DNA of 64,000 nucleotides from Promethearchaeota archaeon (GCA_048938105.1 JBHLMN010000001.1:428921-492920), one strand, 5' to 3'; counted from the stretch's first letter, positions 41,291-64,000 are shown. Notes: generated from the sequence alone by a model not told the origin. Numbers and translations are program-made.

Positions 41291-41366
41291 ACAACCACTG
41301 GATTCAGTATATATTTTCTCTCACTTGAGTTTCCCCTTTCAATCATAAGTTAATTACTCAAACTAA

Positions 41367-41922: not shown

Positions 41923-42708
41923 TTAGTCTGAAAAAGCATTCTTAACCTCTTTTAGAAATGAGTCTCTTTCTGTAAAGAATGATTTGATTGGTTTGCCGTT
42001 AACAATGCAGAAAGAGATTTTTCCACGCTTCTCACATTCCACAGGCTCATTATATTGATTAATGATCCTTATCGGGGCCTGTGGTACCGCTTCCTCTACC
42101 AATTTCTTGATAGCTTTAGTAAAACGAACACAAAAAGGACATGAGATGTCAACGAAAATTAATACTTTTCCTTCATCCTCTTTTTGAGGAATATAGCACG
42201 TATATTTCGGAACATATACAAATCCCTTTTGAATAGGATAATAGAGGAGAAAAGGGTGATTATCGTAAACTTTTTGAAAGCCTCCAAGAATAAAGAATTC
42301 CTTTTGAGAGAAGCGCCCAGGCACATCAAATGTATGTGCTACAAGTGCCAATGGTGGTTTGTCATTAAAATAATGTTGAGGGTATTGCATCTCTTCAAGT
42401 AACGCTTTTAATAAGGCATTACCCACTCCTCTACGATGATACTCCTTTTCAGGTACAAATATACATGTTATCTTAATTAAACGCTCATCAATATCTGGTA
42501 AGTACTGAATAAATCCAACAAGTTTTGAATTGAAAAAAGCTAGTTTGGCAATGCTTCCATATTTCTTTAGATTCTGCTTTATCCATTTTTTCTTTAGCTT
42601 AGATCCTTCTATAAAAAGGGGATCATCTTGTTGGTCAGGTGGAAGACACAAGTTGATCAGATCATCAATATGTGCCATATTGAGGTCTTTAAGTTCAATT
42701 CTTGTCAA
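41923..42708 (-). CDS. GNAT acetyltransferase with YoaP/thioredoxin-like C-terminus
   Basis: VGFIQYLP, ITCIFV..YHRRGVG, C-terminal CPFC. Confidence 0.82.
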   Translation of the reverse strand: MTRIELKDLNMAHIDDLINLCLPPDQQDDPLFIEGSKLKKKWIKQNLKKYGSIAKLAFFNSKLVGFIQYLPDIDERLIKITCIFVPEKEYHRRGVGNALLKALLEEMQYPQHYFNDKPPLALVAHTFDVPGRFSQKEFFILGGFQKVYDNHPFLLYYPIQKGFVYVPKYTCYIPQKEDEGKVLIFVDISCPFCVRFTKAIKKLVEEAVPQAPIRIINQYNEPVECEKRGKISFCIVNGKPIKSFFTERDSFLKEVKNAFSD

Positions 42709-42791
42709 TACATTCTACTCATATGATTTAAATCGGAATTTTCGAGACATTAAAGAAGAAAGATAGCCAAACCTCTTACAAAGAAGTGAGA

Positions 42792-42864
42792 GGGCGTCGA
42801 TCCAGAGAGTAATTCAGCTTCTATTAGCTCGTCAGGGTCACTCCATCAGAAGTTCTGACATCAA
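42792..42864 (-). repeat. rnpB 3'-end fragment, copy 2 (short, ~73 bp; att-like scar)
   Basis: GGGCGTCGATCCAGAGAGTAAT...TTCTGACATCAA matches 60629-60701 with several substitutions. Confidence 0.88.
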
Positions 42865-42949
42865 AGTACGTGTCGTTCATTAAATTTACCCTGAAATCTT
42901 TTTAAATTTATAGGGAAATGGAAGTATCTGAATGTGAGGGATAAAGAAG

Positions 42950-45019: not shown

Positions 45020-45298
45020 TATTGAATGATATCTTCTTTGGACTCAAGGTCAGTTTTAAATGGAGCCATATCATTACAAGTCTCATTAATGTAAAAGACG
45101 TGAGAAGGGTTAGGTTTGATCTTGTTTCTATCACTTAGGCTTTTACGGTTGATTTTCAATAATTTTCCCTTAAGAGAAATTTACTAAGATTGGAAGTCAT
45201 TTTAATTTAATATTATTATGAATATTTTTAATTACAAAAAATATCAGGTTTTTTAAATGGACTCAGAAATAATCCTCATATAATCAATTCAATGAAAG

Positions 45299-46312
45299 GT
45301 GATCCATATATCATCTCAAGAGAAACAGCCTCATCCTGCATGGTATAAAGTAAGTGAAATTAATTATGGTCGTGAAACTATTATCTGGATAACAATCATG
45401 GGTCTAATCTTAAGTGTGATTGGAACTTTCATTAGTATATTGTTTTTATTCTTCTTAGGGATAATTAATCTCCCAAGGGAATTCCAAATCATTATTGATC
45501 CTGTTTCCCCTCTTATTGTTATGTTGATTATTGGATGCTTTCATGAAGGAATTCATGGTCTTGTTTTTAAATTCTATGGAAAAAATGTAAAATATGGATT
45601 CAAAATTATGTATAATGTTATTCCTGTTTTCTATGCTTATTCTAAAGGAATTTTCTTTAGGAACCAACTTATCATCGTCTGTTTAGCCCCTTGTTTTCTG
45701 ATCACAGCTGCCCTTTCAATTATTTTGATTATAACTATTTATCAAAACTTAGTTTGGATTTCATTATTTCTTATTGCAATAATTCTTGCTCATCTTGCGG
45801 GATGTGGTGGAGATTTCTATCTCACATATCAATTATTGAAATATCCTTCAACAGTAATTGTAGAAAATACAGGAGTTGATGATCCATTCATTATTTGGAA
45901 TGATTCAGAATTAAAATCACTGAACTATTCTATTATTCCCCAAACTTGGATTATTCCTAGATATCTGAATCCAGTACTAAAATATAGCAGAAATTTAGCA
46001 AGTGGTTTATGTCTATTCCTTCTATTGGTAATATTAGGAGTAACAATTCTAGGTATACTTCTTCCAGTGATAATGATACCACTGATGACAAAAGAACTTC
46101 AACTGTTGGGTTTTCATTATATAAGAACTTCAATTGGGATAGAAATTAGCTGGGTTCATCCCTGGGAATTACTAATGATTAGCTTCCTAGGAACTATTTC
46201 AATTTATGTTAGTTATAGGAAGATCTTCAGTTTAAAACGAAAGAAATCATTAGAAAGTGAAGTAGATGATTCTTCTGAAAATGAAAATGCAGGAATCCCA
46301 TTTTTTATTTAA
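45299..46312 (+). CDS. DUF3267-type membrane zinc metalloprotease
   Basis: HEGIH, LAP, AGCGGD motifs; multi-TM. Confidence 0.82.
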   Translation: MIHISSQEKQPHPAWYKVSEINYGRETIIWITIMGLILSVIGTFISILFLFFLGIINLPREFQIIIDPVSPLIVMLIIGCFHEGIHGLVFKFYGKNVKYGFKIMYNVIPVFYAYSKGIFFRNQLIIVCLAPCFLITAALSIILIITIYQNLVWISLFLIAIILAHLAGCGGDFYLTYQLLKYPSTVIVENTGVDDPFIIWNDSELKSLNYSIIPQTWIIPRYLNPVLKYSRNLASGLCLFLLLVILGVTILGILLPVIMIPLMTKELQLLGFHYIRTSIGIEISWVHPWELLMISFLGTISIYVSYRKIFSLKRKKSLESEVDDSSENENAGIPFFI

Positions 46313-46488
46313 AAAATCAATAGCTATTAACAAAAGGATTCAATGAGATGAAAAAGGAGAAAGACCGATGAGGAACAAGCGAGCATTTAAAGACAAAATT
46401 GTGACCCTCACGGATTTTTTCAGTGCCTAGCACTCCTTCTTCCTTTAGTTTTTATAATAGTACAGTAGTAATTGACAGGAAAGGTATA

Positions 46489-47931
46489 TTACTTATTATA
46501 TAGTAGTAATCTGGTTTCGAGGTCTGGATTTTTCATGTCTAGTTGAAGAAACGTTTTTAATATTTGAAACCCAGCTAAATGGTCGTTAGGAGGAGCTTTC
46601 CATAATTTCATTGAGTCACCTCCCATAAATCGCAAATAGAACGTTTGTTTAGATTTTTCAATATTGAGAAGAGCTTTTTTCGGGATTATGAGGGAAGTGA
46701 TTTCTTTTTGGAAAACTTTGTTTGAAATGTTTATGAATACTCCCCAAAATTCAATATATTTCCGACTAATAACATCTGTTAGGAAAAGATATCCAAACAA
46801 TAATGAGATTAATGAGATAATTATAGAGATTAGAAAAAATACAATAATGCCAATTTCTTGAGGAGACTTAGAAAAATCTCCATTAGGAAGCGTAGATCCA
46901 TTAGATATGATATATAGAGTTAATATGATGAGGAGAGCTAATACACAAAGGAAAAATATTAAGAATGTAGTAATAATTATTCTTCCCAATATATTTATAT
47001 TCCCTCTTTTCTTTGCACGAAGAATATAAACATCATGATGGGATTCTATATCAAATTTTGTTTTAAGGGGTTTGTATTGGTCAACTAAGTCATTCAAAGG
47101 AAGCCCCTTTACTTTTGTATAAGGATCTAGATCATCATTTTTTTCTATAATTTGGTCAATGACAGTTAAAATGTTATGACTTGGAAAGACAGTAGATGTG
47201 GATTTATGCGGACGATTACGAAATTTTTTCCACTGACTTAGCTCTACTGAACCTTTTGTTACAATCAATACAGGATAATGACTGAGTATGTGAATGAGCT
47301 TATAGTAAAACGGGGCTACATTGGCTAGTCCTGCCCATGTCCACATTTTTATTGGGTCATCGGATTCTGAGAATTCTAGTTGATTGTAAAACCTAACTGA
47401 GATAAAATAACTCCTTGTGCTTACTCGAATTTCAACACTTTCGACCTGTTCTAAATTGATCTGATCTGTTACTACTTGGGTGTAAAAATCTCGAATTGAA
47501 TAAAGAACCTTATTAACAGAATCATGAATAATGTGGTGTCTTGGAAGGTTTATAAAGATTATAACCCATCCAGTCAAAGATAATAGACCCTGAAAAACCA
47601 AGATAAATATGAATAATTCTAAATCAAATCGATTACAGATAAAATTGAATAAGATAAAGATCATGACCGTTAAAACCAATAAATACTGTTTCCAAGGGAC
47701 ATGACATGTCTGGTTTGGCCATTTTAACATTAAGTACCCAATGCTGATAAGTAAAAGCGCAAGTAACATAACGAAACCATTTATGGTTAACGTTATTAGT
47801 TCTGAATTGATTATAAATACAATAATAAAGAATAAGGAGTGAAGAAAGATACCAAAAAGGGAATTGACAACAGAATATAATCTAGATCCCATAGGTATTT
47901 TCAAATTATTCTCTAATGCGTAGTACTCCAC
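46489..47931 (-). CDS. Membrane hypothetical protein
   Basis: 480 aa, 4+2 TM segments, each group followed by a soluble beta-rich domain. Confidence 0.72.
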   Translation of the reverse strand: MEYYALENNLKIPMGSRLYSVVNSLFGIFLHSLFFIIVFIINSELITLTINGFVMLLALLLISIGYLMLKWPNQTCHVPWKQYLLVLTVMIFILFNFICNRFDLELFIFILVFQGLLSLTGWVIIFINLPRHHIIHDSVNKVLYSIRDFYTQVVTDQINLEQVESVEIRVSTRSYFISVRFYNQLEFSESDDPIKMWTWAGLANVAPFYYKLIHILSHYPVLIVTKGSVELSQWKKFRNRPHKSTSTVFPSHNILTVIDQIIEKNDDLDPYTKVKGLPLNDLVDQYKPLKTKFDIESHHDVYILRAKKRGNINILGRIIITTFLIFFLCVLALLIILTLYIISNGSTLPNGDFSKSPQEIGIIVFFLISIIISLISLLFGYLFLTDVISRKYIEFWGVFINISNKVFQKEITSLIIPKKALLNIEKSKQTFYLRFMGGDSMKLWKAPPNDHLAGFQILKTFLQLDMKNPDLETRLLLYNK

Positions 47932-48077
47932 AAAATTGCCCTCTAGATAACATAATGCATTCTGATTTTCAAATACTCTGGGATTTAATTGTATATTATC
48001 CTTTAAAATGTTATAGATCCAAAACTTTTAGAGGAGGAGTAAATTAAAATTTCAGTAAGTTAGATGGGTATTGAAAT

Positions 48078-48878
48078 ATGAAAGAAGTGCAACCTATTAT
48101 TGACATAAGAGGTTTAATAAAGAATTATGGTACATTCCCTGTATTCGATAGACTATCATTGACAGTCAACAAAGGTTCTTGTACTGGCCTAGTTGGGCCT
48201 AATGGGTCGGGGAAGACCACTTTGTACAAATGCTTACTTGGTTTCACCGATGTAACATATGGCCAAATTTCTTTTTTTGGAGACGAAACATGCAAAGACG
48301 GTCTTGTAAGACACCAGAGTTTACACACCTGTAGAAAACGTATTGGTTATGTTCCAGAAGAGAATGTCTTTTACGAACATTTATCTCCAAAAGAATACCT
48401 CCAGATGGTTGCCTCTGTCATTCGAATACCAAAGGACGTTCAAACCATTCGCGTAAACGCATTGCTAAGTGCATTTAAATTGGAACGTTGGGCGGAGCAG
48501 ATGATAACCACCTTATCTGAAGGAAATAGACAACGTTTATCTATCGCTGCTGCCTTTATCCAAGGACCTGAACTTCTACTTCTGGATGAACCTCTTAACG
48601 GACTTGATCCTGGTGGAAGACATTACTGCCTTAATTTACTCTCACAATTCACGGATAAAGGTGTGCCTGAACTCGCTATTACTTCTCCAGGAACTATTCT
48701 TATCAGCAGTCATTTACTTGGAGATATAGAGCGTATTTGTACGGACGTTATAATATTGAACCATGAATGTCAAGTAGTAGCTCGTGGTTCACTCTCTGAG
48801 GTACGTAATAGACTAACCGAGGATGCAAACCTTGAGGATGTTTACCTCGCTGTAGTTGAAGGTTGGGAGGAAGAATAA
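48078..48878 (+). CDS. ABC transporter ATP-binding protein (exporter type)
   Basis: GPNGSGKT, LSEG, LLLDEP, SSH. Confidence 0.93.
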   Translation: MKEVQPIIDIRGLIKNYGTFPVFDRLSLTVNKGSCTGLVGPNGSGKTTLYKCLLGFTDVTYGQISFFGDETCKDGLVRHQSLHTCRKRIGYVPEENVFYEHLSPKEYLQMVASVIRIPKDVQTIRVNALLSAFKLERWAEQMITTLSEGNRQRLSIAAAFIQGPELLLLDEPLNGLDPGGRHYCLNLLSQFTDKGVPELAITSPGTILISSHLLGDIERICTDVIILNHECQVVARGSLSEVRNRLTEDANLEDVYLAVVEGWEEE

Positions 48879-50342
48879 TTGGAAATAATGAGGGATTTAT
48901 TTGAGAAAGTTTATTATTTAAGTTGTTTACGAATAAAAATTGGTTTTAAAAGACATTCTCCTATTATCTTTGCAATTGGTATATTGTTTCTTTTGTTTTA
49001 TGCTTTGATTTTTGGAATTCTTTTAGTTATTCTTTTCTTAGGTATTTTCTCACAACAAAACTTCCAACCACCAATTCCTTATAGAGATTTATTATCATTC
49101 GGATTTTTAGCCTTTTTTGCCACAATCTTGTCTTATTTGATTACTGCTGGAGCGACTGGACTTCGAAACCCTTTTATTAGTGGGCGGCAGGATGCTCACT
49201 TTTTTCAGCGCATCCCAGTTGAATCATTTGTAATGTATGTCTCAACACAAATAATTGAGCCTCTCAAAATAGCCTTACTATTTGGACCGATGATTGTGTT
49301 TCTGTTCGGTCCTTTAATGCTGGTACTTCATTTACCTTGGTGGAGAATAGTAGGTGTACTAATTGTATGTTTCCTTACCTACATTCTTTGTGAAAACATG
49401 GCACAATTAGCTTTCTTTACTCTTAGGAGGTTCAGGCGTAAAGGAAGTTGGTCCTTAATATGGATAGAATATAATTCTCTAATTGGCGGTATATGTATTC
49501 TAGGAATTCCTGTAATAGCACTTCTATTGTTACAACAAAATATTATCACCAATTTCAAAACTCTTACCAATTATACTCTTTTCCCCTTGGTTAATACAGC
49601 AGTATCAGCAACAGGTTTTTTCTTCCGGTCTGGTGTTCCTTTAGTAAGCTGGTTTGCTCTGTTAATTCTATTTTTGGAATCAGTCATACTTTCATGTGTC
49701 GCTAGCATTGTTGCAGTGAAATACAAACCAATGGAGGACATAACAGAGATCATACCTGTATTATCATTTCAAGCAACACAAATAGAAGATCTTATTGGTG
49801 GGAAAACTATTGAACCCCCTGAGCTAATTAACGAAAATATCAAAGGTACAACCATTATCAGTGGTAAATCACCTTGGCGAGCTTATTTATTAAAAGATTG
49901 GCTTGCTATTAAACGTATTCGCATGTTACGGAACCAATTTTATCAAGCTCCGATTATTGTTATTGGAATTATCATTATTATTTTATTCGTTATACCGAAA
50001 GAGAATACATTATCCCATATAATACTAATCTTAGCTATTTATCGAATGGCCGAATTTTGTATGCAAATTATGCAACTAGAAATTAAGGATCCAATGCAGC
50101 GTTTCCCAGTTAATCCATGGGATATGAGAAAAAGTAAGTTTCTCCTTGGCCTCTTAGGAACAGGTTTTTATAGTATTCCTTTGTTAGTAGTTAAAGGACC
50201 AATTAGTTTATTGATCATAATCCTTATATCAGGACTGAGTATAATTCTTGGGAAGACAAAATTAATAAACTCCAAGCTTACCAGATACTTCATATTATTA
50301 ATGATTGCATTTTTGACAACATTATTACTCTTGTTATTTTGA
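48879..50342 (+). CDS. Putative ABC exporter permease
   Basis: About 11 TM segments. Abuts the ATPase gene. Confidence 0.78.
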   Translation: MEIMRDLFEKVYYLSCLRIKIGFKRHSPIIFAIGILFLLFYALIFGILLVILFLGIFSQQNFQPPIPYRDLLSFGFLAFFATILSYLITAGATGLRNPFISGRQDAHFFQRIPVESFVMYVSTQIIEPLKIALLFGPMIVFLFGPLMLVLHLPWWRIVGVLIVCFLTYILCENMAQLAFFTLRRFRRKGSWSLIWIEYNSLIGGICILGIPVIALLLLQQNIITNFKTLTNYTLFPLVNTAVSATGFFFRSGVPLVSWFALLILFLESVILSCVASIVAVKYKPMEDITEIIPVLSFQATQIEDLIGGKTIEPPELINENIKGTTIISGKSPWRAYLLKDWLAIKRIRMLRNQFYQAPIIVIGIIIIILFVIPKENTLSHIILILAIYRMAEFCMQIMQLEIKDPMQRFPVNPWDMRKSKFLLGLLGTGFYSIPLLVVKGPISLLIIILISGLSIILGKTKLINSKLTRYFILLMIAFLTTLLLLLF

Positions 50343-50658
50343 GTTTCTTCCTCCAATAATTCCTATTATGAAGAAGTTATGTGGAATGTGAAGTCTTTCT
50401 TAGAATTCCACCTTATTAGTGGGAAAAAGTTTTATTTCTCTGTAGGTGGTGTTTTTTTCGCAAGAATTAACTAACCCACACGCTTTGGGCACCATGCTTT
50501 TAAAGGAAGGATGTGTCAAAAAGCTAGATATCCTTGCTTTTACAGGGGGTAAGTAACGATTGGACGGTTGATTGAAAAGAATTACAAATAATAATTGCAT
50601 TGGAATGATAGACATTCCGAAATGTTTTAGAAAACAGCCACTTATTTTATTAAATCGT

Positions 50659-52086
50659 TTATGCGGTAGATGGTTTTAAATTATGGTAAATTATACCAAA
50701 ACAAAAACAAAGAAAGTAAATACATAGTCCAATCAGAAATAGATCATTGTTATTCATTATTAAGAGAGGAATATGAATACAAATTACAAGAAGAAATGAT
50801 AATAGCCATTTTTCTGTGATTAAAGCTGTTTTGGATATATCAAAATGGCGAACGAATGTTTTTGATTCTTTAAACCACAAAAAGAGACTGATAATAATGG
50901 TGATCACAGGTACAATAATAAGATAGCCTGGATATATTGTTACTTTAGTAAAAATCCAAAATACAAGTAAACCGCTAATTAAAATAAAAGCACAACTATA
51001 GAGTAATGATATTCTGAATTTATCCAAAAGTAAGAAATCTTTCTTGAGTAAACTACTAATTTCAGATAGGAAACGACTTTGAGATGATTTAACATAGGTG
51101 AATTTAAACAAAATTTGTGCTAAAGAACTAAAGATCAGAAGAGAGATCAATGGGGCTTCTATATTGGATGATAGGTATTGTACTAACGGTTGTCTTTCAT
51201 ATAATCGAGCTAAAGGGTCTATTCTTCCTAAAATTAGAAAAAAAAGAAAATTAACCACTAACCAATTGAAGATTAATGTTGATAATGCCAGGAGTACCAT
51301 GTCGTGAGGCCAGGTCTTGGAAAGAAAAGCTAAGATAAGATAGATGATATTAAAAGGGGGAATAAACCAAAGATTAAGAACCAAATCTTCGAGAAACAAA
51401 GTATTAATCTTACTTGCCTCCATTATAACAACTAGTCCTCCGAAAAATAGAAGGAAAATCAAAGCTTTTACAACAGTAGTTATTCCAGAAATATTTTCTT
51501 CTCGCCATCTGGGCTTGAAATTTTCAAGAATTTCCTCAACAAATGTATATACAAAAGCACCAGCTAATATGAAGAGATGAGTTCCTAAAAATAACGTGAA
51601 AACTGCTGATAGCATATAGAGAAGTTGAATATCAAATTTTGAACCATAAGAAAAGATGAATAAAGATAGTACAAAGATTAATCCCATTACTCTCAGAGTA
51701 GTCCGAAACCACCCAATGAGTGTCCAAGTTAAGGGTCTACCTGAAATCTGTGATACTACGTTTAAATCAGCCACCTTGAAATTAAAAGGATTCAGAGGAA
51801 ATAATTCAGGTCCATCAGAAGCAGGAATTGTAAAACTTAGACATGATAGAATAAAGATTACCAATAAAAAAAACACTAAAATCGTTATAACAACCCCTCG
51901 CGGATTTCCTCCCAAGAATGGAATATACCATCGCATGAATACTATTATGAGGATTTCTAAAAATATCACAAAATAGAACATCAGGCTTGATTTTGGCACA
52001 GCATCCAATAATCTTCCCCATTTTTTATATTCAAGCCAAATAAACCGTCGTAAGATATTCCAATTGCTAGATGCTTTATGTTTCAC
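50659..52086 (-). CDS. Putative ABC exporter permease
   Basis: About 11 TM segments. Overlaps the stop codon of its ATPase gene. Confidence 0.78.
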   Translation of the reverse strand: MKHKASSNWNILRRFIWLEYKKWGRLLDAVPKSSLMFYFVIFLEILIIVFMRWYIPFLGGNPRGVVITILVFFLLVIFILSCLSFTIPASDGPELFPLNPFNFKVADLNVVSQISGRPLTWTLIGWFRTTLRVMGLIFVLSLFIFSYGSKFDIQLLYMLSAVFTLFLGTHLFILAGAFVYTFVEEILENFKPRWREENISGITTVVKALIFLLFFGGLVVIMEASKINTLFLEDLVLNLWFIPPFNIIYLILAFLSKTWPHDMVLLALSTLIFNWLVVNFLFFLILGRIDPLARLYERQPLVQYLSSNIEAPLISLLIFSSLAQILFKFTYVKSSQSRFLSEISSLLKKDFLLLDKFRISLLYSCAFILISGLLVFWIFTKVTIYPGYLIIVPVITIIISLFLWFKESKTFVRHFDISKTALITEKWLLSFLLVICIHIPLLIMNNNDLFLIGLCIYFLCFCFGIIYHNLKPSTA

Positions 52087-52900
52087 GATTCCATACCTCT
52101 AGGATGAATGATTCGAATGTTTGATCCTTAATCATTCTTTTTTTTGCATCAGAAATTGATCCTTTCCAAGCAATCTTACCTGAATGGAGAATAGTCATAT
52201 GGGTACATAAATCTTCTAGATAAGATGGACTATGAGAGGAAATGAGAATTGAACCAGGAGAATTGATGCCTAATTCTGGGATACCATCTGTTATGAATTC
52301 ATTAAGTAACTTCTTTACTTTATTTCTTATGTTAACATCTAAAGTAGCAAAAGGTTCGTCTAAGATGAGTACTTCAGGTTGATGGATTAAAGCGGTACAA
52401 ATCATTAACTTTTGGTGATTTCCCCTTGAAAGATTTTTGACCAAGGTTTCTTGCCAAGTTTCTAACTCAAATATATCGAATAAAAAACTAGTATAAGTTG
52501 AAAGTGCTTCCTCTGATAAACCATAAAGGTCGCCAAGAAAGTTAGTGTATTCATCAATGGTTAAGAAAGGATAGATTTCAAGCTGTTCAGGAGTGTACCC
52601 AATTCTCGGTCGTATATTTCGAAGGACAGATAAAATTTTTCCATGTATAACCACATCATACCCGAAAATACGTATATTACCCTTCTGAATCTTTACTAGT
52701 CCCATAAGGCATTGTAGTAAGGTTGTTTTTCCAGCGCCATTCGGTCCAACAATGCCTAAACACTCATGATCTTTAAGACTCAAACTAATATCGTCAAGCA
52801 CCTTAATTTTACCGTAACTTTTCACTAAATGATCAATTTTTATAGGGAAACGGGATTGTAATAGTGCTTCTGAGTTCGTTTGGTCTTTGATAAACGCCAT
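52076..52900 (-). CDS. ABC transporter ATP-binding protein (exporter type)
   Basis: GPNGAGKT, LSRG, LILDEP, SSH. Confidence 0.93.
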   Translation of the reverse strand: MAFIKDQTNSEALLQSRFPIKIDHLVKSYGKIKVLDDISLSLKDHECLGIVGPNGAGKTTLLQCLMGLVKIQKGNIRIFGYDVVIHGKILSVLRNIRPRIGYTPEQLEIYPFLTIDEYTNFLGDLYGLSEEALSTYTSFLFDIFELETWQETLVKNLSRGNHQKLMICTALIHQPEVLILDEPFATLDVNIRNKVKKLLNEFITDGIPELGINSPGSILISSHSPSYLEDLCTHMTILHSGKIAWKGSISDAKKRMIKDQTFESFILEVWNRET

Positions 52901-53437
52901 TCGAATTCTCCAATATAATTTTGAATATTTTAATTAAAAACTAACTATTTAGTACACGGATATAAAATATTGAGAATCCAATAGTAATGAAAGACCCAGA
53001 GAAAAAGATTTTGTGTGTACTCCTCAGTAGACTCTTGTCAAGTTTAACTGATTTTTCTGATAACTCATCTTGTTTGTACTCATCAAAAAATCTGGGGATA
53101 AAGTTCTTAAGATCAAGAAAATGCTAGATAGATCCAACCAGCATTATATCATAACTAGATCCAGCAATAATGAGACCTAAGCTAAAAAAATGTACAAATA
53201 TCGTCATCTATATCACCGTGAAAATTCCCACTAAGCTTAATTTCAAACAAATATTGTTAAATCATTTTGACTTAATTTTTATCATTAACCAACTATAAAT
53301 GCTGTTTAGGTAGCAATTGAATCTAAAATATTACGCTGTGAAGTTCAATTTGTATTCTATTAATTTTCACCACTTTTGGAAATTCTTCTTTCTTCCAATA
53401 CTAACCTAATAATCACTTTAACATAAAATAAAAGTGA

Positions 53438-53616
53438 GGACGTCGCTCCAGAGAGTAATCCAGCTTCTGTTGGCTCGTCAGGGTCACCCCATCCGAGTTT
53501 CTGACATCAACCTAAGCGCTGCACTCCATGGCCCCCAAAGAGACCATTACTTCAGCTTGCATTCACTGAGGATGCTCGTTTCACCGATACCCTGCTCGTC
53601 CTCAGGAGATTAACTC
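53438..53616 (-). repeat. rnpB 3'-half fragment, copy 3 (179 bp; att-like scar)
   Basis: Matches 60629-60807 with 4 substitutions by my count. Ends at GGAGATTAACTC. Confidence 0.95.
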
Positions 53617-53843
53617 ATTCAGAAATTGATAAGTATACCTGATTTTCGTTCCTTCCAGATAATAAATCTCATGGGGGAAGATTTTTTTCAAAAAATCGTT
53701 CAGATAACTGAAAAGTAGCAACGGCGGCGTGGAGGCCAAATGGTTCCCTTCCAGATAAGCCGTCGACTAGAGGCGCCGACGCCCCGTTCCTCTCGTACTG
53801 AGAACGTCTTCCTCTCATAGATTCAACATGTCCCAGACTTAAT

Positions 53844-54035
53844 TCATAGTTTGTAACCGACAGTTGCATTGACGCGGAGTTGTTGCTCCTCGTAAATGGT
53901 TTCCGTACCAACCCAACCACCTGAAGATGCAATCAACATCATCTTGCCAGTACTAGATTCTTTTGGGTTAATGGGTAACCTAACAATAACTTCATTTTTT
54001 TCTTCATCAATTTCAATTTTAACCAGTTTCATCAC
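53844..54035 (-). CDS. Small hypothetical protein (SxxGKxxxIASxGG motif)
   Basis: 63 aa with a GAGGTG Shine-Dalgarno at the start and protein-like composition. Confidence 0.75.
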   Translation of the reverse strand: MMKLVKIEIDEEKNEVIVRLPINPKESSTGKMMLIASSGGWVGTETIYEEQQLRVNATVGYKL

Positions 54036-54104
54036 CTCTTAAGACAATTCTAGTTTCTTCCCTTAATTTGTAGGACACTTTGTGAATTTTAGTTAAATTA
54101 AAGT

Positions 54105-54821
54105 TTATTGGATAGTTTTAAGTTCATTGATGAGATATAATAAGGAATGCCAAACCAAGTTTGAATCCCCTGCTGAAGCCAATTTTGGGTTCTCATGGGC
54201 GTATAAGTTACGTAAATTACGAATAATTTCCTGAACATTCTTAGTCATTTCTTTCTTCTGTTTTGGTTGTTTTTGAGTTGATTGAAACCTATTAAATAAT
54301 TTTAGAATGCCCCATTTCTCTTCAAATCTAATTGAATTTTTATTCATTTTCTCTTTCAATATATATTCAGTAATCTTACCGCATAAAATTATTGAAGCAT
54401 CAAAAAAGCCCAAGAGATGGAGTTTCCTCGCGTTCACTAATGATTCTTTTAAATAAGGATCTAACTGTCTCTTTTCTAAATCTTGAAGTTCTCTCAAATC
54501 TGATATATCCTTCAGTTGTCTAATTGCTCTACAAATAAGATAATCTCCACGATAAACATTCTTTTGCCACTTAGGAATAAACATTTTCTGTTTCACATTA
54601 AGTTTTGAGAAATTGGGAATGTTTCCCATCGTCCTAAGTAATCTAAAGGATTTCTTCTGTTCATTAATCTTATTGAGAGATTCTATTGTATTGTTGTCAA
54701 TAATCATGGCCCAAGTAAAAATCTTGGTTAAAATTTCATTATTCTTATTTAACCAATTTTCATATTCACTTCTAATATCAGAAAGATAAGATGTATTATT
54801 CATGAAATCTTCACTAGCCAA
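54105..54821 (-). CDS. HEPN (DUF4145/Abi-like) domain protein, putative RNase toxin or defence protein
   Basis: ASIILCGKITE followed by IRNLRNLYAH (Rx4H HEPN motif). Confidence 0.75.
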   Translation of the reverse strand: MASEDFMNNTSYLSDIRSEYENWLNKNNEILTKIFTWAMIIDNNTIESLNKINEQKKSFRLLRTMGNIPNFSKLNVKQKMFIPKWQKNVYRGDYLICRAIRQLKDISDLRELQDLEKRQLDPYLKESLVNARKLHLLGFFDASIILCGKITEYILKEKMNKNSIRFEEKWGILKLFNRFQSTQKQPKQKKEMTKNVQEIIRNLRNLYAHENPKLASAGDSNLVWHSLLYLINELKTIQ

Positions 54822-54870
54822 ATCAGTTCTTCAGAGGATTTCAGCATGTTTCAATTCATACAATACAAAG

Positions 54871-55014
54871 TTATTTAGGGTATTTAGTTGCACCTTTTGC
54901 GTCAGACCGTTTCTTTCTCCATTTTCCAGACATTGTTCTTGATCTAGGTGCATATTTTCCATTTTTTGTCTTAACATGTGGTCCTGCTTTTTTACCTGCT
55001 CTACGATCAGGCAT
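54871..55014 (-). CDS. 47-aa highly basic small protein (not in the ORF track)
   Basis: MPDRRAGKKAGPHVKTKNGKYAPRSRTMSGKWRKKRSDAKGATKYPK, preceded by the SD GAGGTGA. Confidence 0.65.
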   Translation of the reverse strand: MPDRRAGKKAGPHVKTKNGKYAPRSRTMSGKWRKKRSDAKGATKYPK

Positions 55015-55032
55015 TTGTCATCACCTCTTTGA

Positions 55033-55710
55033 TTAGTTCGCTATTGAAACACTACTACATTTTCTTCTCCAGATTGTTAGATAATAATTGTGTTCAAAGG
55101 TATTATTACATATATTACACGTAAAATCTAGGAATTTTGACCAAAATCGGTCTAGTTTGTCTAATATATAGCTATGAACACTTTCTTCACGACACACTGG
55201 GCAAATAATTTTTAGATAGATTTTATGATTTGTTTCATTTACTTTTTCACATTTTTCTACAAAATATTGAATTCCCAATCTCGTTTGATGCCACTTTTGC
55301 ATCCTTGGAAAATGATCAAAAGTACTATCCATAGGATAGTGGTATTGAATGCTTGATTTTTGATTTATAACTGAAATATGATTATTGAAATCTGTTAGAA
55401 AATTCTCTACATCGTCAAATCGACATTTATTTAGAATATCAATGATTCCTCGGTTTTCAAGCCTTTTTAAAATTCTTTTACCAAATTTTGAGATGATACA
55501 TGGTCTTATATGAAGATGCTTGGGTGTTCTATTTTTAACAAGACCTTTCTTAATTAACCAATCACATATGGCACCAGAGTCGATGAAAGAAGGCAATCCA
55601 CTAATTTTAAGCTTTTCTCCTATGAAGCAGAGCGTGATCAATGCATGTTCATTTTCTAGAAGATTTTTTATACCTGCCACGTTGCTATCATCTCTGCCAT
55701 ATTTGTCCAC
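55033..55710 (-). CDS. Hypothetical protein with wHTH-like N-terminus and C-terminal Zn ribbon
   Basis: WLIKKGLV....ISKFGKRIL wing; CPVC...CNIC. Confidence 0.7.
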   Translation of the reverse strand: MDKYGRDDSNVAGIKNLLENEHALITLCFIGEKLKISGLPSFIDSGAICDWLIKKGLVKNRTPKHLHIRPCIISKFGKRILKRLENRGIIDILNKCRFDDVENFLTDFNNHISVINQKSSIQYHYPMDSTFDHFPRMQKWHQTRLGIQYFVEKCEKVNETNHKIYLKIICPVCREESVHSYILDKLDRFWSKFLDFTCNICNNTFEHNYYLTIWRRKCSSVSIAN

Positions 55711-56043
55711 TCGATTATCAAGGTTTCCTAGAAGGAAACAAAGATTCAGTGTCTAATAACTTTTGATTATCATCCTTGAATGTTTGCCTCACTAGTTTTG
55801 GTTCATCAATCTCCGCAGAATTTTTTCAATCCTCTTCTCCAGACTCCATAATTATAATATAACCTTTTTTTAACTTCAAAATTGAATGGTTATTTTGTAC
55901 ACTGCATATTAGGGAAACTTTAAATAGATTACGTATAAATGAATAAAATGAATTTTTTTGCGTACTAATGAAATATGACGCTACTATATCAATATACTAG
56001 AGCTGTAGTACCTTGATATGAAACTCCTTCTGGTGGATACTAG

Positions 56044-56652
56044 ATGAAACGAACTCCTTTAGCTGTTATTATTGATTTGATGGTTGGATTAAATACTCTT
56101 TTATTAGAGGAAGATTATTCTATTAACACTGTCTCAGAAATCACAAACCTTCATTGGGAATCTACTAATCGTTATTTGGAAATCATTAGAAAGATTCAAG
56201 ATTACTCACCATTTTTTACATTCACCCAAGATAGAAAAATAAGGATCTTAGCACGAAATCCGAATTTAAACATCGAAAACGATGATTTAATATTAGTTTA
56301 TAGTTTACAAAATAAAGCATTTGATGAACAATCAGCGATCGTACTACCAAATTCTTTAAATGCAGAGATAGAATTCTTATTGGATAAAGAGTTTGGTGTA
56401 TTACAAAAGAACAGAAAATTCTTTCTAACTCAAAGAGGAAAGGAAATGGCGCTTGATATTTTTCTAGAAATCCAACAAAAAATTGAGTCAGCTCAAACAG
56501 CCCATATAGGCATGAATGATTTTGATTTCGATAAATTACGTAAAATAAACTTAAAACAGAGAGAAATGGAATCCATTGCTGATAATATAATTGCAATCAT
56601 TTTCGAGAAACTTGAGAAAAGTAAATGTGACAAAGAACTCGAGGTTCACTAA
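56044..56652 (+). CDS. Winged-helix DNA-binding protein
   Basis: SINTVSEITNLHWESTNRYLEII HTH; second wing FFLTQRG. Divergent from the HEPN cluster. Confidence 0.72.
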   Translation: MKRTPLAVIIDLMVGLNTLLLEEDYSINTVSEITNLHWESTNRYLEIIRKIQDYSPFFTFTQDRKIRILARNPNLNIENDDLILVYSLQNKAFDEQSAIVLPNSLNAEIEFLLDKEFGVLQKNRKFFLTQRGKEMALDIFLEIQQKIESAQTAHIGMNDFDFDKLRKINLKQREMESIADNIIAIIFEKLEKSKCDKELEVH

Positions 56653-57138
56653 GCAGGTTGATTTTTCTGTCTTTTTCAATTCTAAATATTTCTAAGTTGT
56701 AAATAGGATAAGTGCGGGGTGGGGATTGTGATTGGATTGATTGATTTATCACCTGTCAGAATATCAGAACAAATCGAGTTAAGTACAAAAAATGCATCTT
56801 CAAATACAACCCAGCTTTATAATGTTTCAACAAACGCTTACAGTTTAAGTTACCAAGTGAAAGTTTATGGATATCAATAAGATCTTTTTGGGGGAAATAT
56901 CGTTGCTAATCTATAACTTATCTGCTTTTCATCTTATAAATGTTTCATTTTAAGGTTAAAATGAGTTTCTAATGAAATACATAGGTAACAAATAACCAAA
57001 TTGAGCATTGAATGAAAAATAATGTTAGATTTGATTTTATTTTTTGTTTTCGATTTTTTATCTATTGTTTTTCGAATTATTTTTCCATTCTCACACCTCC
57101 ATAATCCTATACCTGTTGTTGATGTAAAATAATTGGAA

Positions 57139-57317
57139 GGGCGTCGCTCCAGAGAGTAATCCAGCTTCTGTTGGCTCGTCAGGGTCACCCCATCGGAGTT
57201 TCTGACATCAACCTAAGCGCTGCACTCCATGGCCCCCAAAGAGACCATTACTTCAGCTTGCATTCTCCGAGGATACTCGTTTCACCAATGCCCTGTTCGT
57301 CCTCAGGAGATTAACTC
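57139..57317 (-). repeat. rnpB 3'-half fragment, copy 4 (179 bp; att-like scar)
   Basis: Matches 60629-60807 with ~10 substitutions. Ends at the same GGAGATTAACTC breakpoint as copy 3. Confidence 0.95.
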
Positions 57318-57412
57318 AAGGACTCCAGAAATTAAAAAGATGATTTCACTTATAAGTTCCCTTGATATACATCATATATTAAAAAAACAAGAGATTTGAA
57401 CTTATGTCCAAG

Positions 57413-57919
57413 TCAGAGCGATTGTGGTGAATCCTTAAAAACAGAATACGCTACTCCTGTAGGATAAGGGGGAGCTGTGTCCAGAAATAGCTTAATCATA
57501 ATTAATGATGCTAATAGATTGACTAAAAAAGCTGTGAATCTAATATTTTTACTCAATCCATACTTTTCTTGGCCTGGTATCGTAAAGATCCCATTTCCAG
57601 CATGTAGTGAAAGAGTAAAAAGTAATGCTGGAGTACTATTAAATATAAAGTCGATTGGATACGTAGCTCGTTCTTTAATAGTAACCAGGGTCATACCAAT
57701 TAATGATGAGACCATAAAGATCGCTATTTGTATAAGAAGATACAATGGTTTAGCAATAAGTCTTTTATTCTTACCTTGTTCGAAGGTTGATACCGAAACG
57801 TTAAGTTTTTCTCCAATCTCATCAATTTTCTTCTTATTCAAAAAATTTACCCCAATAAACGCAGTGCGATTATCAAATAAAATCTTATACAAAACATGAT
57901 CTAGGGGACTGTTATACAT
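57413..57919 (-). CDS. Membrane hypothetical protein
   Basis: 168 aa with ~3 TM segments. Confidence 0.55.
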   Translation of the reverse strand: MYNSPLDHVLYKILFDNRTAFIGVNFLNKKKIDEIGEKLNVSVSTFEQGKNKRLIAKPLYLLIQIAIFMVSSLIGMTLVTIKERATYPIDFIFNSTPALLFTLSLHAGNGIFTIPGQEKYGLSKNIRFTAFLVNLLASLIMIKLFLDTAPPYPTGVAYSVFKDSPQSL

Positions 57920-58066
57920 ATTTTAGTATAACTCCCTTACCATTGTTCAAGAAAAAGATCTATAAATATTTTTATGATTCTGGGTTCATATTAAAAAATC
58001 GTTTATGTTACTCTTATCCTCCAAATAAGATGTTAAGTTTTAGTAGGTCAGGTATATACTACTCTT

Positions 58067-59377
58067 TCATCGAAGAACGGGTATATCAATTACAGATCCT
58101 CGTACTCTTTCTTTTACTCCTCGAAGTTCTTTTAGTATTTCTTCTTTTTCAGCTTTAGTTGTAGATAAAGTTAACGCAGTTCGATAGAAGTATGAGGTTT
58201 TAGGGTCATCTGTCAACGCTCCTAAACGACCTAAATTCCAATAGATAATATAGTTATCAGAAATTAATCTTGAAGATACAATAAACAAGTCTTTAGCTTC
58301 TTCATACCGTTTTAAATAGAATTTTCGAAGACCTTGATTATAACAAGTAGCAGCCTTGTTCATGATAAAGAAAAAGTCAAAAAAATGGATAGATTCAGAA
58401 CTCAAGGAACGAGTATAGGAAAAAGTCTTTTTTAAATCAGAATCAGTGGTGAATACCTGATAAAGTTTAGATTCTAGATCAACTATAAAAGATTGATAAT
58501 CTTTTTCCAATTCTCCAGGCGTTTTTTTTCGTTTAACCCATAATGTGAATATTTTCTGGTGAAAATCAATGTTTTGTAAAAAATTTATGGTTTTACTCAT
58601 TTTAATTTGATATTTATCTAAAATATGGGTATAACGTGTGATTATTTGCAGCAATATTCCTGCTAATAATGGATTACAGATAGACAATCTGGTAAGGGCA
58701 TGAATGCAATTGTTAAGCATGTTTGTTTTCTCTTTTTTGTCTAAATAGGACTCAATATTTTCAATATGATTTTTTTCTAACAAATGAGTGTTTTTCACAT
58801 GTCCAGAAAATATAATTGGCGTAATATTTGTTCTAAAAGCGTGAATGAGAGTTATGTCTCGAATTTCATTGGGAAAAGGTTTTTTGCAGGTAATTCGTAA
58901 TCCTTTCTCGTATTGATGACTCTGAGGAGTTTCTTTCCTAATCTTAACGAATCCTGCCTTCAACAAAAAGTTAATAAGAATTTCACTTGTGAAACCCGTT
59001 TTATGCCGCATTCCAGGGTTTTTTACACCATAAATCCACTGTAGAGTTGATATTTGTGATGATAAGTCTTTTAAACGGGAGATCTTTCTACTGGAAGACT
59101 TTAAATCAGGTACTTCGATAATCAAGCTCCCACCTTCTTTTAATATTCTGAACCACTCATTCAATATGTATTTGACTTCCACCCAGTCAAAATGTTCAAG
59201 TAAGTGAAAAGCCTCTATCATCCCAACTATATTTGACTTGATCGGTAAAAAAGCAGCATGAGCACCAATGTCTGCAGCACTCAAATTAAATAGATCTACA
59301 TTCAAAAAACCAACGCGGTACTTCAATCCACATCCTAAATTAAGAGAAATCTCTGAAGTTTTTTCATTATATATCAT
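58067..59377 (-). CDS. Class I SAM methyltransferase (type 11) with C-terminal TPR
   Basis: LNLGCG, NVD, HLLEH, RILKEGG..VPD; TPR-like YNQG...YEEA...YWNLG. Confidence 0.82.
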   Translation of the reverse strand: MIYNEKTSEISLNLGCGLKYRVGFLNVDLFNLSAADIGAHAAFLPIKSNIVGMIEAFHLLEHFDWVEVKYILNEWFRILKEGGSLIIEVPDLKSSSRKISRLKDLSSQISTLQWIYGVKNPGMRHKTGFTSEILINFLLKAGFVKIRKETPQSHQYEKGLRITCKKPFPNEIRDITLIHAFRTNITPIIFSGHVKNTHLLEKNHIENIESYLDKKEKTNMLNNCIHALTRLSICNPLLAGILLQIITRYTHILDKYQIKMSKTINFLQNIDFHQKIFTLWVKRKKTPGELEKDYQSFIVDLESKLYQVFTTDSDLKKTFSYTRSLSSESIHFFDFFFIMNKAATCYNQGLRKFYLKRYEEAKDLFIVSSRLISDNYIIYWNLGRLGALTDDPKTSYFYRTALTLSTTKAEKEEILKELRGVKERVRGSVIDIPVLR

Positions 59378-59385
59378 AATATAAT

Positions 59386-60417
59386 CTAATCCTCATTGAC
59401 CTGATTTTGGATAATATCTGTTTCTATACGATGAAAACAGTACGGATCATTATGGAATTGTTCCATCAGTGCATAGGAAACCGAGTTACAACCTCCTTGG
59501 CAAGTCAAGTTGTGTGGGCAACGAATACAGTATGATCCTATTTGGTTTTTCGAAAATTGTCTGTTATAAGAAAACGTATCTTTACTGTACCAAATCGATG
59601 ATAATGATTGCTTTCGTATATTCCCTTCAATGAAGCGATCATTTCCCATGGCTAAACATCCAACGATTCCACCATTACTTGTAATCCCAATTGAACTGAT
59701 TCCAGCAGTACAGCCATTCCAAAGAAAATTTGGCATCACACTAGAATGATACCCCATAGAATGGGCTCCGACAACTGGCATGTTTTGGAAGTGATGTTTA
59801 GCTCTTAGTTCAGCAATGAATAAGCCTACAGCATAAAATTCTTCATAAGAAAGCATTTTATCTTTTGTGAATTGACCAAAAGGTGCTGCCAATTGAATTT
59901 GCCAGTTAACCCCTTTATTATAAATAAGAGTCTTTAGTTTGGGAAGCTCATTGAAATTAATTTTGCTAACTGTTGTTATAATAGTTACATGGATTTGTTT
60001 TCTTCTTAAAAGATTGATTGCTTTAATTGCATTAGTGAAAGTTCCTTTTACACCACGAATGAGGTCGTGTGTTGTTCGTAAACCATCAAGACTAATGCCA
60101 ACCACGGTTGGTTTTAATTCAGCTAATTCATTGATGTATTTATTAAGAATAAACCCATTAGAAACAATACTCAATTCTATGCCAAGATCTTTAATACAGC
60201 TAGCAATTTCATACCAATCTTTTCGTAAGAAGACTTCTCCTCCCATTAAAGCAACATTATCACACTTTAAATGGGCTAATTGCTCACATAACGAAAACGA
60301 TTCCTCAGTGGTTAATTCATCACTTCGGGCTTGACCTGCGGATGATCCACAATGAGAACAACGTAAATTACATTTAAGAGTGGTTTCCCATATTGCGCAC
60401 TCCAATGAATAGTTCAT
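59386..60417 (-). CDS. Radical SAM protein with SPASM domain
   Basis: CNLRCSHC, GGE, SLDG..HD..RG, CTAG...GC...C..C.....C.GGC...C. Confidence 0.92.
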   Translation of the reverse strand: MNYSLECAIWETTLKCNLRCSHCGSSAGQARSDELTTEESFSLCEQLAHLKCDNVALMGGEVFLRKDWYEIASCIKDLGIELSIVSNGFILNKYINELAELKPTVVGISLDGLRTTHDLIRGVKGTFTNAIKAINLLRRKQIHVTIITTVSKINFNELPKLKTLIYNKGVNWQIQLAAPFGQFTKDKMLSYEEFYAVGLFIAELRAKHHFQNMPVVGAHSMGYHSSVMPNFLWNGCTAGISSIGITSNGGIVGCLAMGNDRFIEGNIRKQSLSSIWYSKDTFSYNRQFSKNQIGSYCIRCPHNLTCQGGCNSVSYALMEQFHNDPYCFHRIETDIIQNQVNED

Positions 60418-60629
60418 TGCATCGACCTTGCAGAATAAAGTAAAATACTAAATATTAGTTACTTAAGGTGACTGACCCTCATTAACACAACATATATTCA
60501 CTTGAGACTTTAAAAAATTCTGATTTCTATTTTTGTTCTGAAATTCTCTCTTTTTCTCGGATTTTTCACGTATTGACAGTATTAACAACAGTTTATGAAA
60601 ATAAAAGTTGAGCCATAAAGAAAGCAGTG

Positions 60630-61002
60630 GGCGTCGCTCCAGAGAGTAATCCAGCTTCTGTTGGCTCATCAGGGTCACCCCATCCGAGTTTCTGACATCA
60701 ACCTAAGCGCTGCACTCCATGGCCCCCTAAGAGACCATTACTTCAGCTTGCATTCACTGAGGATGCTCGTTTCACCGATACCCTGCTCGTCCTCTGGAGA
60801 TTAACTCGTCCACTGTTACCAGCGTCTTCACTCCATCATAGCCATGAGAACAGGGGCGTTGCGTTTCTGTAGCAGAGCCCAACCTCTCGGTTGACAGCGA
60901 ATAGTTACCCACAGGTACTATCCGACTGTTCAGCATACAAGAATGGCTGGAATTTCCTCAGGTTTTCGGAGAAACCCGGAGTCAGACTTCTGCTTCGACG
61001 CC
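60630..61002 (-). ncRNA. rnpB: RNase P RNA (archaeal type A-like, ~373 nt)
   Basis: Minus strand: P1 GGCGTCG/CGACGCC; P2 TCTGAC/GTCAGA; GAGGAAATTCCAGC pairs with ACAGAAGCTGGATTA (P4 with bulged U); P5 CATTC/GAATG followed by CAAG; conserved ACAGAAAC and TGAAAC; P12 base CCCTGTTC/GAGCAGGG. GC-rich block in AT-rich DNA. Confidence 0.93.
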
Positions 61003-61024
61003 AACATTATTAGGTTCCCTCTAG

Positions 61025-61039
61025 TATTTTAACCTTTCG
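61025..61039 (-). promoter_or_regulatory. BRE-TATA promoter of rnpB
   Basis: Minus strand CGAAAGG-TTAAAATA, with the TATA 23-30 nt upstream of the P1 5' end. Confidence 0.65.
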
Positions 61040-61136
61040 AGGGTTTCACGTTCTAATCCTCTTGCCTAAACCTCAGGCCCTACTGCCGTCATACGATTTG
61101 GAAACGGCTATTAGACGCTTTGTTGTGCATTTTTCC

Positions 61137-61616
61137 TCAATTCCTAAAGAATTTCTGGTCTTGCACTATCAAATTAGCGATTACCAGCAAATGGTTTCGC
61201 AACGTGTTATGTCCATGGTTCATGGATTCTGTTAAGTATTGTAATTCCTTACTATTGTAAATATATGTATAGAGTGTCCAGATGTTTGTAGACACCTCCT
61301 TTATTTCATGAGCGAGTCTATCAGAGTCTATTTTTTCCCTCATTTTCTTCGCCTGCCATGTATAACGACTGGTTACTGGTGAACGGATCTTTCGCGTTAT
61401 ACCAGCAGCCCACTGATCATAAATTTGGAAGATACTTATTAGCGGATCGTATATTTTCTCATGATGGTTTCGTAATCGCTCTACGAAGTTTTCGTCCTCT
61501 AATGGTGGTTCTACATAGATTTTTGATTTGTGAATAGGTGTGACTCAGCCCAGTCCAAGTAATGTCCCGTTCGGACTTATCCTTCTCTTTGGGATTGGGT
61601 TTCTCCTCATTATCAT
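61137..61616 (-). pseudogene. 160-codon frame with SD and ATG interrupted by an in-frame TGA at codon 24
   Basis: AGGAG-ATG at 61616; MIMRRNP...LGLG*VTPIHK...MREKIDSD...FFRN; TGA at 61545-61547. Confidence 0.35.
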
Positions 61617-63158: not shown

Positions 63159-64000
63159 ATGAAGAGTGTAACCAATTTGAAGAATAATGATAGAGTTCTC
63201 ATTCTATTCCTTTTACTTTGTCTAAATGTCCGTGGATTATCCCAAGTGCTTCGATTCAACCCTGATAGCCAATTCTCTGCTGATCAAACGGCCCAATTTA
63301 CTGTTATTACTCAAAAGCTTCACCAATTCATTCCTCATGATCCTATTATTATTACAAATGACAATAATTTTTCCTCCCAAGGATTTCCTGGCTTAGGAAC
63401 CATCGATGATCCCTACCGCATAGAAAACTTCAATATCACAACTTCCACGGGTGCTTCGATCGCAATATATGATACTGATACATATTTTTGCATTAGAAAT
63501 AATCTTCTCAATGGTTTGTTCACAGCTTCATCAGGTATTGAGTTTAACTATGTTGATCATGGTATAATCGACGGTAATGTTGTAACTAATTATTTCTCCT
63601 ACGGAATACTTCTTGAACACTCAAAAAATAATATTCTTTCCAACAATATGGTCTTCAACAATAGAAACGACGGAATTCGACTTCGAATTTCTACAGCCAT
63701 AACCATTTCTAGCAATACGGTTGCCCACAACGATGACGGTATTTTTCTTTATGGTTCTATAAACAACACAATTTCCAACAATACGCTTTTTAACAACAGA
63801 GATGGAATTTCTCTTTGGGAAGACTCGGAGAATAGCATTATTTCAAGCAATTCTGTCTCCAACAACAACCACCATGGAATTTCTCTTCGAGAATCAGGGA
63901 ATAGCATTATTTCAAGCAATTCTGTCTCCAACAACAACCACCATGGAATTTTTCTTTGGGACTCGGAGAATAGCATTATTTCAAGCAATTCTGTCTCCAA
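63159..64000 (+). CDS. NosD/beta-helix surface protein, 3'-truncated by the window edge (not in the ORF track)
   Basis: ATG at 63159 with an open frame to the end: HDPIIITNDNNF..GFPGLGTIDDPYRIENFNI, then N..GI.L repeats. Confidence 0.85.
   Translation, partial: MKSVTNLKNNDRVLILFLLLCLNVRGLSQVLRFNPDSQFSADQTAQFTVITQKLHQFIPHDPIIITNDNNFSSQGFPGLGTIDDPYRIENFNITTSTGASIAIYDTDTYFCIRNNLLNGLFTASSGIEFNYVDHGIIDGNVVTNYFSYGILLEHSKNNILSNNMVFNNRNDGIRLRISTAITISSNTVAHNDDGIFLYGSINNTISNNTLFNNRDGISLWEDSENSIISSNSVSNNNHHGISLRESGNSIISSNSVSNNNHHGIFLWDSENSIISSNSVS
63802..64000 (+). repeat. 69-bp near-identical in-frame tandem repeat (23-aa beta-helix rung)
   Basis: AATAGCATTATTTCAAGCAATTCTGTCTCCAA starts at 63831, 63900 and 63969. 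Confidence 0.9.

Follow-up and report, generated by a model that had tools for sequence, protein, structure and literature searches.

The gene for the RNA of RNase P (rnpB) and a series of partial copies lying downstream of it were analysed in a stretch of 64,000 nucleotides (nt) from a Promethearchaeota archaeon (GCA_048938105.1, JBHLMN010000001.1:428921-492920), hereafter the window. The gene is of the archaeal type and full length, and judging from its score with the Rfam model RF00373 (137.1 bits against a threshold of 84) it is apparently the functional target gene at the end of an array, which as a whole covers positions 39147-60997 and comprises four segments. A repeat finder reported three direct copies (60617-60812, 57127-57322 and 53426-53621), which correspond to a block of 179 nt within rnpB itself, a near copy and a far copy. 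Two shorter copies, both beginning at TGATGTCAGAA (RNA ~297) and absent from the account given in the initial annotation of the window, were recovered by a whole-genome search. All copies lie downstream of rnpB in the orientation of the gene, and the five in the window all terminate at RNA 362-369 (Table 1). The segment between the gene and the near copy is called the radical-SAM cassette below, that between the near and the far copy the DUF4145 cassette. Comparisons were drawn within a family set of 21 genomes, in which G000 is the genome of the window and the same-genus relatives are Heimdall/Hodarchaeales (labels with G and L are our own). Taken together, the arrays support rnpB as a recurrent insertion point, where each insertion leaves a copy of the 3' part of the gene behind.

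The shared 179 nt were compared by alignment and a base-by-base count, and positions are given in RNA numbering. The near copy departs from the gene at ten positions (203, 212, 218, 221, 233, 240, 242, 270, 313 and 330), the far copy at only four (203, 270, 330 and 367), and the two copies depart from each other at eight. The coordinates and difference counts of the initial annotation were exact, and its remark that the pattern is no simple age gradient was borne out, with greater divergence in the nearer copy than in the far one. What it had overlooked is that U203, U270 and C330 are common to both copies and distinguish them from the gene, whose own A203, A270 and U330 were seen neither in the genes of close relatives nor in the fragments of G000. 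The far copy, 98% identical to the gene, is the block nearest to the genes of relatives (four to five differences to those of G014 and G011, versus six to seven for the gene), and private changes number three in the gene, one in the far copy and seven in the near copy. Six of these seven, U221 and U233 among them, fall within 31 nt (RNA 212-242; p~0.003 in a scan test devised once the data had been seen). Over the following 127 nt (RNA 243-369) the near copy departs from the far copy at 313 and 367 only, and looks like a mosaic of a divergent patch and a host-like 3' part. G257 is present in the gene and in both long fragments of G000 and in no other gene among the 14 full-length genes of the genus.

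Conservation was judged across the same 14 genes, and the Rfam consensus structure (68 pairs) was transferred onto the RNA so that each difference was placed pair by pair, together with an energy evaluation. In the near copy positions 203, 218 and 270 are unpaired, the last sitting in a loop; 212 turns a G.U into an A-U pair; 221, 233 and 240 turn Watson-Crick pairs into G.U; A242 breaks the pair 64-242; and 313 with 330 forms a C/C in a lineage-specific hairpin. Position 367 lies just beyond the Rfam match. On the Rfam structure the energy was -44.7 for the gene, -45.3 for its 5' half joined to the far copy and -37.8 for its 5' half joined to the near copy. The stretch ACAGAAG (3' strand of P4) is untouched in both long copies and altered in both old short ones. 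Positions 203, 270, 313 and 330 vary freely among the 14 genes; at 221 and 233 all 14 carry C, where the near copy has U, and A242 and C218 of the near copy occur in none. The initial annotation had taken several differences as preserving structure, which is right for 212, for 270 in its loop and for 330, where G.U becomes G-C in the far copy only; it fails for the near copy with its C/C and its broken pair, and the compensation seen at 313/330 was over-read, as the functioning genes of G014, G011 and G009 carry C/C or U/C there. From the sequences compared, the extra changes of the near copy look like relaxed constraint and not like an alternative working allele. Because these changes are clustered, place U at two invariant sites, weaken or break pairs and share U233 with fragments behind radical-SAM cassettes, the near copy was probably never a working, complete allele of the gene.

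Table 1. Features of the rnpB array in the window (positions counted from the first nucleotide of the window).
Feature	Position	Strand	Remarks
rnpB, archaeal type, full length	60635-60997	minus	RF00373 model positions 1-288
Repeat block within rnpB	60629-60807	minus	RNA 191-369, 179 nt
Near copy	57139-57317	minus	RNA 191-369
Divergent patch of near copy	57266-57296	minus	RNA 212-242
Far copy	53438-53616	minus	RNA 191-369
Older short copy	42780-42864	minus	RNA ~297-369; 85-87% identical
Outermost short copy	39147-39210	minus	RNA ~298-362; 89% identical
Cassette 1 (radical-SAM)	57318-60628	minus	between gene and near copy; no recombinase
Radical SAM/SPASM peptide-maturase-like protein	59386-60417	minus	cassette 1
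Methyltransferase-like protein, 436 aa	58067-59377	minus	cassette 1
Protein of no known function, 168 aa	57413-57919	minus	cassette 1
Cassette 2 (DUF4145)	53617-57138	minus	also proteins of 225 aa and 87 aa of no known function; no recombinase
wHTH protein	56044-56652	plus	cassette 2, divergent orientation
DUF4145 protein	54105-54821		cassette 2
Composite segment, 10.5 kb	42865-53437		NosD/beta-helix protein, DUF3267, two pairs of ABC ATPase and large membrane protein, 480 aa protein of no known function; no recombinase
Oldest islet	39211-42779		GNAT/thioredoxin-like protein, 134 aa protein, ClC channel
ClC channel	39506-41290		oldest islet

Fragments of the rnpB tail were likewise found in relatives, so that G000, G002, G003, G009, G011, G012, G014 and G015 of the 21 genomes contain them, often as arrays adjoining the gene, and records with the same tail belong to Asgard archaea labelled Heimdall-, Hod-, Hermod- or Promethearchaeota. 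Most of the at least 20 fragments in relatives reach the 3' end of the RNA, and a few stop near 327. Their 5' boundary tracks the family of the preceding cassette and differs between families: it lies at 191/192 with the radical-SAM cassette (G000, L096), at 239 with a PadR-505aa cassette (G014, G012) and at 278-282 with a 496-aa cassette (G003, L084, L086). Array content and order vary among G000, G003, G009, G011, G014, L089 and L096, which marks the inserted DNA as accessory. The order is rnpB, ClC and a 40-nt fragment in G009, syntenic with the oldest islet of the window; rnpB, four small segments, radical-SAM cassette, fragment and 134aa-ClC in G011; GNAT, radical-SAM cassette, fragment 279-363 and ClC in L089; and radical-SAM cassette, fragment 192-363 and outer flank in L096. 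Homologues of the radical-SAM cassette stand behind rnpB fragments in G011, G014, L089, L096 and L097, and the position of the cassette in the array differs in G000, G011, L089 and L096. Between G000 and G011 homology is unbroken from the end of rnpB (RNA 335-369) through a T-rich spacer into the cassette, and again from the tail of the cassette into the distal block. All three radical-SAM-distal fragments compared (G000, G011, L096) carry U233 and are changed at position 240, while the 3' parts of such fragments carry states private to the host, G257 in G000 and U265/C266 in G011, the latter being confined to the gene and the fragment of that genome. As independent assemblies of the species (four from NCBI besides G011's own and one Logan run) show the very same G011 array, such arrays are no assembly noise.

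The best, if tentative, reading of this pattern, to which we accord slightly less than an even chance, is a reciprocal crossover inside the shared block, by which cassettes dock at the 3' part of rnpB and the tail of the gene is swapped. The 3' part would serve as a landing pad for an incoming cassette bearing its own copy of that part, and a single crossover, placed between RNA ~243 and ~257-270, would rebuild a full gene and leave an extra block at the far end of the cassette. With a crossover in this position each product becomes a mosaic: the gene would keep its own sequence up to the crossover and take the cassette copy from there to its 3' end, and the distal fragment would consist of the 5' arm of the cassette and the displaced host tail. 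The near copy fits such a mosaic, since it combines the 212-242 patch, with its cassette-linked U233, and a 3' part with the host-private G257. The patch would then be the unselected arm of the radical-SAM cassette, never joined to the gene, and six of the ten near-copy differences would probably lie in an arm that never served in the gene here. As for the order of events, the DUF4145 cassette may have entered first, leaving the far copy, and the radical-SAM cassette last, leaving the near copy; the DUF4145 event appears recent although distal, because its cassette is confined to G000 and the far copy matches the gene at 98% identity. Entry of the DUF4145 cassette into an older fragment was considered as well and rejected, for it would give an old-looking 3' part in the far copy, and none was seen.

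On these grounds the radical-SAM cassette may have brought in the last ~120 nt of the working gene from a same-lineage donor, a distant one being disfavoured by the presence of G257 in all three copies. The exchanged part would probably be ~RNA 250-369, the versions of which differ only at 270, 313, 330 and 367; position 203 does not count among the allele differences, as it lies upstream of the proposed crossover. Exchange of the tail with incoming DNA, which the initial annotation had proposed, is thereby retained in a narrower form: the part exchanged falls short of the full 179 nt, a past role of the near copy as a working allele is unlikely, and what it had described as horizontal shuffling of half an essential ribozyme reduces to a part of the tail, drawn from same-lineage donors and differing at a few tolerant sites. 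Since the alleles differ at three tolerant positions inside the RNA (270, 313 and 330) and stem from the same lineage, the functional impact of the exchange is probably small.

Two routes might lead to such a crossover, and the exchange of the tail would be the same under either. Homologous recombination between the cassette-borne block and the gene would favour a long identical 3' stretch and explain the mosaic without a fixed site; alternatively, a recombinase might act in trans. No recombinase was detected among the ORFs of the window by Pfam, NCBIfam or PHROGs, and the suggestion that each element brings its own allele was not upheld in this respect, an integrase being absent from the cassettes, so that an enzyme can only be inferred. 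The three PF00589 matches of G000 sit on other contigs. G014 and G015 each contain one clear PF00589 match, which is probably a chromosomal Xer-type recombinase, and for this reason an Xer-dependent route is worth testing. Two short minus-strand ORFs, 60463-60678 (71 aa) and 56934-57188 (84 aa), begin at an equivalent point within their blocks and extend into the cassettes. Their likeness is limited to the shared rnpB letters, and they are probably spurious; an integrase split in the manner of SSV, which they had suggested, was rejected because beyond these letters they are unrelated. A scan of viral sequences gave five matches, about the number expected by chance, the longest of which (21 nt, inside an ORF of a GC-richer contig) was judged a chance match as well, and a metagenome scan for the rnpB tail returned further chromosomal arrays only.

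Several points weigh against the crossover reading. Among the ORFs of five relatives' arrays no recombinase was found either, a genome-wide search for PF00589 in G000 and ten relatives gave zero matches on contigs carrying rnpB, and exact-pattern scans of viral and metagenome data yielded neither a circular cassette in free form nor an element with attP. In G000, G014 and G011 the tails that adjoin radical-SAM cassettes today have zero derived states in common, so that the linkage of the swapped tail to its cassette is one that we infer, and A203 is private to the gene among close relatives yet lies upstream of the proposed crossover. Both the clustering test and the argument from U233 were framed after the data had been seen and concern few sites, vertical inheritance combined with gene conversion could yield the same mosaic, and the window stems from a metagenome-assembled genome.

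Among the other explanations, the crossover that the initial annotation implied, at the 5' edge of the block with whole 179-nt alleles being swapped, agrees with the textbook rule for integration into tRNA and tmRNA genes, by which the block of identity extends from the crossover to the end of the gene (Williams, 2002, as cited in PMC4383910 and PMC12884075). The far copy would then be the original host tail, the near copy a working allele brought by the DUF4145 element, and the present tail would have come with the radical-SAM element. That the far copy is the most consensus-like block suits this view, as does the retention of a standard pair by four of the five near-copy changes in modelled pairs. 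A working allele, however, should hardly carry U221 and U233 where 14 of 14 genes have C, nor A242 and C218, which no gene has, with a loss of ~7 kcal/mol on the Rfam structure; its changes are clustered and not spread, and U233 tracks the radical-SAM cassette in three genomes, not the DUF4145 cassette. The apparent mosaic, divergent at 212-242 and host-like at 243-369, argues against a crossover at the 5' edge, on few sites, and we regard this version as quite improbable. A further account dispenses with exchange: the fragments would decay in place, the three private bases of the gene would be its own point mutations and the uneven pattern would be due to chance. The few differences overall, the variable, unpaired or weakly paired state of 203, 270 and 330, and the stronger decay of the older fragments with their altered ACAGAAG stretch are what it would lead one to expect, and a low ratio of 3' to 5' divergence is found in the array-free sister clade as well. 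Uniform decay nevertheless does not predict six of seven changes within 31 nt, leaves unexplained why the nearer copy is more diverged than the far one and why host-private states are limited to the 3' parts behind a cassette shared across species, and sits badly with three private changes in a selected gene versus one in the far copy; on balance it is unlikely. The divergence ratio, 0.44-0.69 among array-bearing species and 0.2-0.6 in the sister clade, for which queries with the clade's own rnpB brought up no rnpB fragments, had been considered as a sign of horizontal exchange and was rejected as such, the fragment-free clade equalling it. Half-gene trees part ways only over G009 versus G011 as the genome that groups with G000, G014 and G015 (AU p = 0.08 and 0.02, the clades having been named once the trees were seen), which amounts to weak incongruence between the 5' and 3' parts.

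The mosaic could also have arisen by concerted evolution, if the radical-SAM cassette and its fragment were old and vertically inherited and gene conversion had rewritten sections of the blocks. These stand in direct orientation at a distance of 3.5 kb, and the divergence of the cassette (69-90% amino acid identity between species for its proteins) is near that of core proteins (70-76%), both of which would accommodate conversion along with the mosaic pattern seen; against this the 3' part of the near copy is without the A270, G313 and U330 of the present gene, a cassette found in G000 only lies distal to the supposedly old one, and the position of the radical-SAM cassette in the array is different in every genome. 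This course of events seems rather improbable to us. An artefact of assembly, the 179-nt repeat having caused variant strains that differ in their first cassette to be joined in tandem, might be suspected in a metagenome bin with 7% contamination, yet the contig exceeds 490 kb, each of the three blocks differs from the others, as do the flanks, and the comparable G011 array recurs unaltered in independent assemblies, so that this explanation is very improbable indeed.

Some further observations concern the cassettes and their surroundings. The sequence AATTTCTG(G/A)A stands within ~20 nt before both long fragments (57318-57345 and 53617-53640), where two cassettes end that are otherwise unrelated. 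A T-rich run comes after every block. None of the 20 other genomes of the family yielded the DUF4145 protein, and an exact look-up of the radical-SAM protein of the window returned no record. A stretch of about 100 nt immediately upstream of the radical-SAM gene (60418-60520) is highly conserved in G000, G011 and L089, above the level of the surrounding spacer, and may serve the cassette as promoter or leader. The ClC channel is 94% identical to that of G014 and 83% to that of G003, whereas two other proteins from the flanks of the window are 70-74% identical to those of G014, G003 being the closest relative on both; this contrast suggests that the gene of the ClC islet was exchanged between lineages. 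In the window, tandem 69-nt repeats at 63617-64000 lie inside an ORF resembling the beta-helix/NosD-like protein of the 10.5-kb segment, and a tRNA gene at 9948-10052 (Rfam tRNA, 47 bits) contains an insertion of 32 nt in the anticodon region, likely an archaeal intron.

Three loci in relatives deserve separate mention. In G003 (L044, G003:C204, 5880-9427) the homologue of window positions 61007-61507, just upstream of rnpB, joins a 3-kb segment with three ORFs, followed by a fragment RNA 279-363; this assembly, which is 83% complete, nowhere yielded an RNase P RNA of full length, and the gene may be unassembled or relocated. The single-contig genome G015 has an RNase P RNA at G015:C1:754884-755269 (L045) of 71 bits, under the Rfam threshold of 84, the first ~27 nt of which are unrelated to other genes. 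In L041 (G002:C84) a fragment RNA 167-362 at 8542-8737 lies in the middle of a 41-kb contig and is 74% identical to the gene of G002 and 76% to that of G000; either it is of great age or its donor was a distant one.

If the proposed exchange is true, an essential ribozyme gene in the lineage of archaea nearest to eukaryotes would routinely receive part of its sequence from incoming DNA, and the tail of that gene would be a docking point for accessory cassettes (a RiPP-like radical-SAM set, DUF4145/HEPN-type defence candidates and transporters) with no dedicated integrase in sight. It would extend the tRNA/tmRNA integration model to rnpB, call for caution where the 3' sequence of rnpB is used as a phylogenetic marker in this group, and offer a testable case for the tolerance of an essential RNA towards modular replacement. 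A bolder version, that portable ribozyme tails move between strains and species, each capture replacing the last ~120 nt, so that the rnpB tail would be a shared mobile sequence and not a vertically inherited segment, is fairly unlikely.

Among known systems, short cargo modules bounded by partial copies of a target RNA gene, most of them without a recombinase of their own, are said to occur in the CIME/ICESt-type accretion of streptococci and among the cargo-only satellites of tycheposon arrays in Prochlorococcus, where integrase-less elements flanked by att sites are reportedly mobilised in trans, and the rnpB arrays resemble them in this respect. Those systems, however, reportedly have a cognate tyrosine recombinase in some members or elsewhere in the genome, and none can be linked to the rnpB arrays. 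IMEX elements, such as the CTX/TLC arrays of Vibrio, use the Xer recombinases of the host at dif; as in the arrays described here, elements lacking an integrase stack at one chromosomal site, which is rebuilt, whereas for rnpB a dif-like site is hypothetical and the link to Xer a candidate one. A close model is provided by genomic islands and prophages, some islands in tandem, that are integrated in the 3' part of tRNA or tmRNA genes (the Williams (2002) model; Islander, PMC4383910; the ssrA islands of Dehalococcoides, PMC3146451). As there, a direct repeat comprises the 3' part of the target up to the end of the gene, the gene is rebuilt at one end and the displaced fragment stands at the other, insertions accumulate and a portion of the RNA gene comes from the incoming DNA. 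In the present case, in contrast, the target is rnpB, an integrase was found in no cassette of the arrays examined, the cassettes measure 0.6-10 kb and the crossover seems to fall within the block rather than at the 5' edge. Full-text searches turned up tRNA, tmRNA and ffs genes as RNA-coding targets of integration, but no paper in which rnpB has this role in archaea. With integron arrays, finally, the rnpB arrays share small cassettes, often of a single operon, in one orientation, each with a repeated recombination element at its end and with an order shuffled among relatives; they differ in that there is no IntI-type integrase (no PF00589 protein on the contig) and no attC hairpin family, the repeat being instead a piece of an essential ribozyme gene.

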